Positions 36,215 through 37,563 of a DNA stretch of 64,000 nucleotides are shown one piece after another. A model generated the notes under the pieces. The model made no database searches and had not been told where the DNA came from. It saw only the letters and a list, made by a program, of their open reading frames with translations. Origin of the DNA: an uncultured Geobacter sp. (GTDB lineage Bacteria; Desulfobacterota; Desulfuromonadia; Geobacterales; Pseudopelobacteraceae). Positions within the stretch are counted from its first letter, which is position 1, and the number at the start of each line of letters is the position of its first letter. Made by a program: the position numbers and the translations under genes. Location of the stretch: positions 18,544-82,543 of the forward strand of contig CAZZMP010000004.1 of NCBI GenBank assembly GCA_964655435.1. Direction: 5' to 3'.

Positions 36215-36245
36215 TTGTATACTGCCTGAATAGCAGACTTATAAT
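36215..36245 (+). promoter_or_regulatory. Possible promoter of the kinase-like/PRTase-like pair
   Basis: Perfect TATAAT at 36240-36245. The best -35 is TTGTAT at 36215-36220, but the spacer is 19 nt, which is long. Confidence 0.3.
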
Positions 36246-36311
36246 AAGAGTGCGTGATATGCGAGAACTACCCCCAATGCCCATAGTTACTGAAACAAGA
36301 AAAAATTAATC

Positions 36312-36872
36312 ATGGCGAGTACAATTATTAAATTAACACCGACAGTAGGTGAAGGCGCTTTTGCATGTGTCGCCTTGGATTACACTGCGGGAATCGCCCA
36401 TAAGATTTTCAAGAAAAAAGATGTTACAACGTATGAGTTTAGAAATAGTCCTTGGGAGAATGAAATTCGTCAGTGTGTATTTCTATCTGAATATGAAGCA
36501 TATAAAGCAGCTATGATTGATGAATCTGCTTGCAAAATTGTACCAAAGTTATATGAACATGTTCAAGTGAGCAAAGTATTAGATAATTACGATAACGATG
36601 TTTCAGACCATTTTTTGCTCGATTGCTGTTTCTCTATGGAATTGATTGAAGGAAATTTTGTAAAGTTTATGCCCAATGGAATCAGTGTAGTACCGGAAAT
36701 AGAGACACAGAGGGTTAAGCAAATTTTATTGAATGCAGGAATTCGCTATTTCAATGATGCAAGTATAACGATAACGGCTTCTTCACAACGCATCCATAAG
36801 ATTATTGATTTTGCGTTATGTGACACTTATTACGAGGAAGAAAAAAAGCATCTGTGGTTGTCTGGGCAATAA
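36312..36872 (+). CDS. Minimal protein-kinase-like fold protein (Kdo/RIO-like size)
   Basis: 186 aa. Gly-loop VGEGAFACV, Lys motif IAHKIFKK, hinge-like SMELIEG, catalytic-loop-like RYFNDASITIT and a DFG-like KIIDFAL, all in canonical order. There is no HRD His. Motif-level call only. Confidence 0.45.
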   Translation: MASTIIKLTPTVGEGAFACVALDYTAGIAHKIFKKKDVTTYEFRNSPWENEIRQCVFLSEYEAYKAAMIDESACKIVPKLYEHVQVSKVLDNYDNDVSDHFLLDCCFSMELIEGNFVKFMPNGISVVPEIETQRVKQILLNAGIRYFNDASITITASSQRIHKIIDFALCDTYYEEEKKHLWLSGQ

Positions 36873-36939
36873 AAGGCGACTGGTATTTTCGAACTATTGT
36901 GCATTCTCTTTGCTAAACCATGACAATATCCATTTTGAT

Positions 36940-37563
36940 ATGAATCCAATTTCTTTACATTCACAGGTCAATTCCAAGCTACCCAAACCGGGTATAAGAA
37001 TACCAAGAGATAGTAGGAAATCTGAGATGGTATTTCCTATTCTTGAACGCCATGAACTATTTGATTCATTTGAATTATTTCATATGATAAATGTAAATAA
37101 GGTATTAAAAAATAAGTCGGATCACTCGCAGTACCTTAAAGGTGATTACAACAGCTATTTACTTGCCAAACAAAAGTACGAGGAGAATCTTCCCAAGTTT
37201 AATAGTAATTTGCTGGATCTTTTTGTGAAAACCAATAAGGATGTAATCTTTGATGCGATAGTAATCCCAAGTTCATCTAGTGAATGGCTTAGGGAAGGAT
37301 TGGTCAACACTTTTGCTAATTATTATCTGATAGAAACATTTGAGGCAAAAAAGCGAGATATGTCGATAGAGGCGAGTAGATGCAGTGATGATCTCCCAAG
37401 TAATCTCTTTTATTTTGAGGATGAAACTATCAAACTAAAAAATAACATTATAATTTTAGACGACTGCTATTGCTCTGGGAAAACCGTAAAGGCGTTGGTT
37501 CAGCTTTTAGGAGCGGATAAAAACTATGCTATCGCTTGTTATTTTGTGGACAGCACATTGTAA
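36940..37563 (+). CDS. Phosphoribosyltransferase (PRTase/ComF-like) domain protein
   Basis: ATG at 36940 inside ORF 36805-37563. PRPP-loop-like NNIIILDDCYCSGKTVKAL near the C-terminus, with an upstream DAIVIPSSSSEW as in ComF-type PRTases. Confidence 0.5.
   Translation: MNPISLHSQVNSKLPKPGIRIPRDSRKSEMVFPILERHELFDSFELFHMINVNKVLKNKSDHSQYLKGDYNSYLLAKQKYEENLPKFNSNLLDLFVKTNKDVIFDAIVIPSSSSEWLREGLVNTFANYYLIETFEAKKRDMSIEASRCSDDLPSNLFYFEDETIKLKNNIIILDDCYCSGKTVKALVQLLGADKNYAIACYFVDSTL

Follow-up and report, generated by a model that had tools for sequence, protein, structure and literature searches.

An ultra-short kinase-like protein and a phosphoribosyltransferase-fold protein as possibly separable cargo of a Geobacter integrase island

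Introduction

Two adjacent genes whose products resemble a kinase and a phosphoribosyltransferase (PRTase) may be the halves of one system or separate passengers of the same mobile element. This question is raised by a 64,000-nucleotide (nt) stretch of DNA from an uncultured Geobacter sp. (GenBank assembly GCA_964655435.1, contig CAZZMP010000004.1, positions 18,544 to 82,543 of the forward strand), here called the window, from whose first letter all its coordinates are counted. Gene A (36312-36872, plus strand) encodes 186 amino acids (aa) from an ATG at 36312, and gene B (36940-37563, plus strand) encodes 207 aa from an ATG at 36940. The locus had been read, from its letters and open reading frames (ORFs), as a two-gene defence or toxin-antitoxin-like module acting on nucleotides, with its own promoter, in the cargo region of an island (the original prediction). 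Here we compared both proteins and their neighbourhoods with sequence, profile and structure collections. We suggest, with a probability of roughly 0.5, that genes A and B are separable conflict-type cargo of a 12.35-kb island, co-oriented and probably co-transcribed, and that they do not form a conserved two-component system. The observation behind the original prediction was partly confirmed, being real apart from the promoter. Its interpretation was partly supported, the two fold readings standing and the two-component reading not. The point of interest shifts from the pair to the family of gene A.

Results

Gene A and its family

The product of gene A contains, in this order, the motifs GEGAFACV, AHKIFKK, MELIEG, YFNDASITIT and KIIDFAL. 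An exhaustive phmmer search of 1.84 billion representative sequences at E <= 1e-3 identified 226 representatives of what we call family A, 46 of them at E <= 1e-10. Almost all of these proteins stand alone and have 150-190 aa (median ~172 aa), and the family spans at least Gammaproteobacteria and an Acidobacteriota-type metagenome-assembled genome. A word-index homologue search with gene A returned itself alone. A single family-A locus came from the scan of a genome collection, and a second, on an IMG/VR viral contig, from the viral scan. No match to gene A or gene B was obtained by tblastn against 50,697 phage records and 72,556 plasmids, or by blastn against E. coli genomes and plasmids. In one metagenomic member, P0070 (357 aa), the mini-kinase domain is preceded by a fused 8xMP ('octameric membrane protein') domain at the N-terminus (PF24838, E 1.1e-20), and this was the sole significant domain fusion seen in family A.

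Conservation was counted in an alignment of 150 family-A members, using the ungapped sequences of each column. The putative catalytic residues were close to invariant: G15 of the glycine loop in 138/140 members, K31 in 140/140, E60 in 142/148, D149 of the catalytic loop in 144/147 and D166 of the DFG-like IDFA motif in 144/146. The glycine loop has one conserved Gly and is not of the GxGxxG form. The C-terminus follows a median of 13 residues past D166 (interquartile range 11-17), with 20 residues in gene A itself. Length and catalytic residues vary little among the 150 diverse members, and on this ground the possibility that gene A is a fragment or pseudogene was rejected.

HMMER searches with gene A, 60 members and the family consensus revealed no significant family in Pfam, NCBIfam or PADLOC, and a search of the PDB with the family gave sub-threshold matches only. 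These matches were recurrently to kinases, namely CaMK1D/G, the SteC minimal kinase and CSK in the PDB, and elsewhere Pkinase, APH, Bud32 and PD-T4-6. The best Pfam or NCBIfam kinase match was to APH (E 0.0011, one member), all others being weaker than E 0.01. The PADLOC model PD-T4-6 was matched at E 0.011 by 2 of 60 members, gene A itself being unmatched.

A kinase profile was built from the sequences of PKA, CDK2, PknB, ERK2, p38, CK2, Src and CHK1, of which PKA alone was verified against the PDB. In a single, pre-specified hhalign comparison, family A aligned with these eight eukaryotic-type kinases with a probability of 93.7% (P 1.9e-7, score 54.8, 131 columns). By comparison, the score was no higher than 19.7 for the reversed profile or any of the 30 column-shuffled controls, and cross-controls gave 12.9-15.2. 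With four kinases the probability was 80%. Against PKA alone only the glycine loop and the Lys were aligned (E 0.11), which indicated that a multi-kinase profile was needed. The residues in register were K31 with PKA K72, E60 with E91, MELIEG with the hinge, D149 with the HRD Asp (PKA D166) and IDFA with DFG (PKA D184), and the D149-D166 spacing was 17 residues compared to 18 in PKA. The motif assignments of the original prediction agreed with this alignment column for column, the Lys, the Glu and both Asp being kept. Its remark that the HRD His is missing also held, the catalytic loop being YFNDAS.

The alignment ended at kinase column 155 of 265, so family A appears to correspond to Hanks subdomains I-VII only. 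Since YFNDAS lacks the His-Arg, no Asn is conserved and the protein ends ~13 residues past the DFG-like Asp, gene A is, as judged from these features, not a canonical eukaryotic-type protein kinase and resembles the OspG/NleH class. On sequence grounds, we place gene A in a family of ultra-short kinase-like proteins that has no annotation. A literature search on minimal kinases in anti-phage defence gave nothing relevant.

Gene B and its fold

A word-index search of 5.8 billion clusters returned a single relative of gene B, a metagenomic protein of 215 aa that is 46% identical. Given this relative for B and the 226 family representatives for A, comparison with other sequences identifies both as real genes and not chance ORFs. 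The public database protein for gene B has 178 aa and starts at M30 (ATG 37027, with AGGA upstream). Identity with the relative extends ~16 residues upstream of this start and includes the conserved RIPR and KSE; opposite M30 the relative lacks a Met. This suggests that the annotated 178-aa start is probably too short and that the ATG at 36940 is the better candidate.

From that ATG, gene B includes DAIVIPSSS and IIILDDCYCSGKTVKAL. Its loop for phosphoribosyl pyrophosphate (PRPP) is IIILDDCYCSGKT (37447-37485), and a segment resembling a pyrophosphate loop is DAIVIPSSSSEW. The PRPP-loop pattern (four hydrophobic, two acidic, x3-[ST]-G-x-T) is present as IIILDDCYCSGKT in B and as ILILDDCYCKGQT in the relative. 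The loop aligns with those of HGXPRT and E. coli APRT and is where the Pribosyltran, PRTase-CE and apt models match gene B, whose sequence similarity to PRTases is limited to it. Gene B fell far under every NCBIfam PRTase cut-off (for example, 17.7 bits compared to 184). In PADLOC it gave weak matches to PRTase_III-A (E 4.3e-5) and ShosT (E 1.6e-4), neither of which was given by its relative. A viral scan for gene B found none.

An AlphaFold model of gene B, made from a two-sequence alignment, had a mean predicted local distance difference test (pLDDT) score of 57, with residues 100-200 better and residues 1-47 below 50. When this model was compared with the PDB using Foldseek, the top 50 matches were all PRTase-fold proteins (APRT, OPRT, HPRT, PurR, PyrR; best E 3.9e-4, probability 1.00), and the BFVD list was headed by viral PRTase domains. 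The intact PRPP loop and the uniform Foldseek result bear out the original reading of gene B as PRTase-like. Gene B is, on this model, a divergent single-domain type I PRTase-fold protein.

Genes A and B in other loci

For co-occurrence, a further 23 independent loci of family A were examined, drawn from genomes, metagenomes and a viral contig; many of the contigs are short. A homologue of gene B was found in 0 of the 23. No ORF with a PRPP loop was present in 22 of them, and the last, L039, had no PRTase domain among its called genes. From the side of gene B the result was the same: its relative has no family-A gene within 10 kb and no kinase-like gene near, and 213 nt upstream of it lies a gene for a 423-aa PLD-family nuclease (DrmC/PbeA-like in PADLOC). 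No fusion of a PRTase to family A was found. The proposed two-component module is thus not seen outside the window. The original prediction had itself named a lack of co-occurrence in other genomes as evidence against it, and this outcome is qualified by the short contigs and by a B family of two. PADLOC did not support a defence system either, since neither protein was matched convincingly and the weak matches of B were absent in its relative.

The island of B's relative shares with the island in the window only two genes, B (46%) and a convergent HU gene, plus one weak match. The HU-type gene in the window (37690-37965, minus strand, Bac_DNA_binding) is convergent with gene B, and the HU gene at the relative's locus (L001 10963-11229, minus strand) is 53% identical to it. 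The third shared match is short, has 31% identity and comes from an antisense-overlapped ORF. Between these two otherwise unrelated integrase islands, the B-HU block is inverted relative to the integrase. One explanation is that the partner of gene B is the convergent HU, a ComF-like PRTase-fold protein and a DNA-binding protein acting together in island DNA transactions as in ShosT/ShosA, with gene A an unrelated insertion. The recurrence of both genes in two unrelated islands, convergent in each and inverted relative to the integrase, is in keeping with this, as is the neutralisation of a PRTase toxin by ShosA, a DNA-binding protein (PMC11961720). However, the block is known from two loci only, HU genes are common on mobile elements and convergent genes are not co-transcribed. 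Moreover, the zinc-finger N-terminus of ComF is missing from gene B (no Cys pairs), and the comF model reaches it at E 0.057 and at the C-terminus only. We therefore regard this explanation as very unlikely.

Transcription signals around the pair

The upstream Amidase_3 gene stops at 36179, 132 nt before the ATG of gene A. This gap holds a TATAAT hexamer (36240-36245, plus strand), which is a possible -10 element without a recognisable -35: the candidate -35 sequences match in just 1-3 of 6 positions at 16-18 nt spacing, none of them acceptable. A consensus promoter scan did not call the hexamer and found 9 promoter-like sites in the region compared to 9.3 +/- 2.9 in shuffles. TATAAT occurs 60 times across the window. 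No terminator was found between the upstream operon and gene A, so a promoter belonging to the pair is unproven and read-through is possible. The ORFs, the quoted motifs, the gap and the positions of hexamer and hairpin were all as originally described, and the claim of an own promoter was not established by these scans.

The A-B spacer (36873-36939, plus strand) is 67 nt long and has no called terminator-like hairpin. Downstream of B, an 11-bp, G+C-rich hairpin (37654-37680) lies between the convergent B and HU genes. The terminator call was for the minus strand only, where the hairpin serves HU and has a TTTTTT tail; its plus-strand tail, TTTGCTT, is weaker. What the original prediction named a strong bidirectional terminator is present as a hairpin, which may plausibly act in both directions. 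A and B are probably co-transcribed at this locus.

This layout is where a true two-component module would find its support. In such a module, for example one resembling a type VII toxin-antitoxin system, the mini-kinase would restrain a PRTase toxin by phosphorylation or activate it on infection, and nucleotides would then be depleted or modified. The shared strand, the short spacer with no internal terminator, the single hairpin after B and the matched low G+C content (GC) all fit. PRTase toxins are established in ShosTA and proposed for RqlHI (PMC11961720), and family-A genes often share an operon with an effector-like neighbour that differs from locus to locus (GmrSD; a membrane protein with a KAP NTPase; HipA). 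We nevertheless consider the module unlikely, because a B-like gene accompanies family A in 0/23 other loci and a PRPP-loop ORF in 0/22 scanned, because the only relative of B has its PLD nuclease 213 nt upstream and no kinase, and because the only family-A fusion is to the 8xMP membrane domain and none is to a PRTase.

Neighbourhoods of family A

Genes of family A adjoin immune genes of several kinds. In L021 (580-7083) the neighbours are GmrSD and a type I restriction-modification (R-M) system, and in L031 (5001-10531) a second type I R-M system. In L038 (1-6531) they are an Eco57I-type methyltransferase, a PLD-SNF2 helicase and Prim-Pol, and in L039 (501-5625) type III CRISPR RAMPs and Cas6. 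Other neighbours were a membrane protein with a KAP NTPase; HipA, ArdC and an integrase; DUF4238; and DUF6602. In an all-against-all BLAST, the only neighbours recurring across family-A loci were N6-adenine methyltransferases. Before any background correction, the neighbourhoods show a defence-island or mobile genetic element (MGE) accessory pattern. Judged by neighbourhood only, a role in defence or conflict is plausible for the gene A family.

The same neighbourhoods can be read in the opposite sense, with family A, carried in MGE accessory regions, serving the mobile element through a kinase for counter-defence or takeover, as T7 Gp0.7 and the effector kinases do, and its proximity to R-M and CRISPR reflecting shared integration hotspots. 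Family-A genes adjoin the anti-restriction gene ArdC, an integrase and Prim-Pol/DUF3987, one member lies on the IMG/VR viral contig, and the nearest structural analogues, OspG, NleH and SteC, are offensive effectors (PMC12756638). On the other hand, the tblastn searches were blank in all 50,697 phage records and 72,556 plasmids, and several members lie directly upstream of R-M genes on the same strand. A kinase that serves the element is, in our judgement, decidedly unlikely.

Ordinary functions were also considered, with gene A as an APH-like small-molecule kinase and gene B as a salvage PRTase, or both as pseudogene remnants. One family-A member does match APH (E 0.0011), and the nearest structural matches of gene B are salvage APRTs. 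Yet both genes lie within a horizontally acquired low-GC island, family A is uniform in length with catalytic residues invariant across 150 members, gene B scores 17.7 bits where an NCBIfam PRTase model requires 184, and the neighbours of family A are immune or MGE genes and not metabolic operons. Metabolic or decaying genes are thus an extremely improbable explanation for the pair.

The island and its other genes

The 12.35-kb island is inserted at tRNA-Arg(CCT) (28683-28759) and has 49-nt direct repeats at both ends. The left copy (28715-28763, plus strand) corresponds to the 3' part of the tRNA gene, and the right copy (41068-41116, plus strand) is 96% identical to it. The right end of the island comprises a P4-type tyrosine integrase gene (39594-40901, minus strand; Arm-DNA-bind_3, Phage_int_M, Phage_integrase), a Phd/YefM-like gene (39093-39614, plus strand; 173 aa, N-terminal domain E 4e-5), an AlpA-family regulator gene (38717-39016, minus strand), a 177-aa ORF just downstream of alpA (38029-38562, minus strand; GC 0.27) and the HU gene. 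GC is 0.395 in the island compared to 0.455 and 0.433 in the flanks; it is 0.36 in gene A, 0.35 in gene B and 0.41 in the upstream operon. With the tRNA-Arg repeat, the P4-type integrase and AlpA in place, the setting as island cargo was as predicted. So was the absence of retron components alongside the pair: the Rfam search gave the tRNA as the sole match with no retron non-coding RNA (ncRNA), and no reverse transcriptase (RT) domain was found in the subset of island ORFs scanned with Pfam. A PADLOC search of ten other island or partner proteins gave no match except for the PLD protein of another locus.

Most of the island is occupied by a packed same-strand operon (31051-36179, plus strand). 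It encodes a double-zinc-ribbon and AIM24 protein, then three zinc-ribbon proteins, of which two have DUF2628, and also an 82-aa protein, a 155-aa lipoprotein-like protein, a zinc-ribbon and LprI protein, and Amidase_3. Zinc ribbons recur at the N-termini, which is unusual, and PADLOC matches none of these proteins. The 177-aa ORF has no Pfam or PADLOC match. Its HFHLII stretch is similar to an HUH motif, and the product could be a small Rep-like protein of the island. The Phd/YefM-like gene and the integrase gene converge with 3' ends overlapping by ~21 nt, and a cognate toxin gene for the former is not evident. A weak Rfam match to rivX at 37841-37910 (plus strand), within the HU coding sequence, scored 21.8 bits compared to a gathering score of 100 (E 0.046) and is almost certainly due to chance. 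Outside the island, a second low-GC stretch at ~11000-19000 (0.34-0.38 compared to ~0.45 around it) contains an ORF of 1188 aa (15019-18585) and may be another horizontally acquired region.

Discussion

Our preferred reading is that genes A and B are separable conflict-type cargo. We propose that gene A encodes a 'half-kinase', composed of an N-lobe with the catalytic and Mg2+-binding loops and without the activation segment and alphaF-alphaI. Lys31 and Glu60 would position ATP, Asp166 of IDFA would bind Mg2+, and Asp149 would act as the catalytic base in the phosphorylation of a substrate. By analogy with OspG and NleH, such a protein probably needs a partner or its substrate to complete the function of the C-lobe. 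Family A would then be a mobile single gene set beside varied immune genes, which makes a role in phage-host or MGE-host conflict the most likely one. Gene B may bind PRPP or a nucleotide through its PRPP loop and act on nucleotide metabolism, an activity that has been proposed for the PRTase toxins ShosT and RqlI and for the type III-A retron effectors.

Several points weigh against this reading. Genes A and B share strand and composition, and the 67-nt spacer with no terminator between them gives the locus the look of a functional operon. Family-A genes are often tightly coupled to a variable neighbour, by overlap or by less than 30 nt, so gene A may work with whatever adjoins it, including B here. 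The B family has two known members, which makes the missing co-occurrence weakly informative on the side of B. No PADLOC model backs a defence role for either gene. With respect to structure, the single-sequence AlphaFold2 model of gene A had a pLDDT of 35.8 and was unusable, so the kinase fold rests on the profile comparison and the motifs. The model of gene B is of low confidence (pLDDT 57), with Foldseek template modelling (TM) scores of 0.3-0.4.

If family A is active, the idea of a kinase made of subdomains I-VII would no longer be confined to a handful of secreted virulence effectors and would apply to a broad family of at least 226 sequence clusters near immune loci. The absence of significant Pfam, NCBIfam and PADLOC matches in family A means that defence-finding pipelines are blind to it. 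Whether as a single gene or as an accessory, family A may be a new component of defence islands, a proposal that can be tested, and it offers a natural setting in which to study kinase function in the absence of a C-lobe. With gene B, the few PRTase-like conflict proteins on record gain a very small member with the PRTase fold. The lack of co-occurrence matters as well, as adjacency and motif logic suggested a two-component system for which comparative genomics gives no support. A bolder proposal would be that family A comprises widespread, undescribed 'half-kinases' of ~170 aa with Hanks subdomains I-VII only, the shortest catalytically equipped kinase-like proteins known, which act as portable phospho-switches beside interchangeable immune effectors and at this locus gate a new minimal PRTase toxin. 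We offer it as speculation and consider it decidedly unlikely.

Comparison with known systems

Gene B can be compared with three systems. Like ComF/ComFC, it has a D-x-I-V-x-P-x-S strand-loop ahead of a PRPP loop at the C-terminus, and it matches TIGR00201 at the C-terminus (E 0.057). In contrast to ComF, it has no Cys in its N-terminal 100 residues and no ComFA or DprA context. The ComF-like DAIVIPSSS motif noted in the original prediction is thus present, but membership of the ComF family was rejected, given a TIGR00201 score of 13.3 bits compared to a cut-off of 233.55 and no Cys4 zinc finger. The likeness to retron type III-A consists of the weak PRTase_III-A match, which covers part of the 290-position model only. 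This identity was also rejected, as no RT was found in the Pfam-scanned island ORFs and no ncRNA in Rfam.

ShosT is a 424-aa protein with an N-terminal pyrophosphatase and a C-terminal PRTase domain and is paired with the DprA-like ShosA (PMC11961720). Gene B shares with ShosTA the PRTase fold and PRPP loop, a near full-length weak ShosT match (E 1.6e-4) and location in an island with a P4-type integrase. It differs in having 207 aa in a single domain, with gene A and HU as neighbours and no DprA-like gene nearby. A Shosta identity was rejected on the grounds that gene B is too short, has one domain and no DprA-like partner, and has a relative without a PADLOC match.

Gene A resembles eukaryotic-type Ser/Thr kinases, Bud32 and RIO in having subdomains I-VII with the key residues in register, and single members of family A match Bud32 and Pkinase weakly. 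Unlike the eukaryotic-type kinases, family A lacks ~110 C-lobe residues and has one conserved Gly in the glycine loop. Effectors of the OspG, NleH and SteC type are roughly 190-200 aa long, and structures of OspG and NleH are present in the PDB. No chain of OspG or NleH was returned at E <= 10 when the PDB was searched with the family-A profile, and a SteC chain (8jbi_D) gave a collinear, two-segment, sub-threshold match (E 0.45). OspG and NleH show that kinases without Hanks subdomains VIII-XI can be active, and a partner activates OspG (PMC12756638). The kinase domain of SteC has likewise been called 'minimal' (PMC13395416). Family A shares with these proteins a short core that ends soon after the DFG-equivalent Asp, with the Lys, the Glu and both Asp kept. 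It differs in its median length of 172 aa and in having no HRD His-Arg and no catalytic-loop Asn, with Y/H-x-x-D-x-S in place of that loop. As far as profile searches can tell, the resemblance is architectural, with no detectable homology. The window showed no secretion-system context. OspG, NleH and SteC are type III-secreted effectors of animal pathogens, whereas family A is found in islands beside bacterial immune genes.

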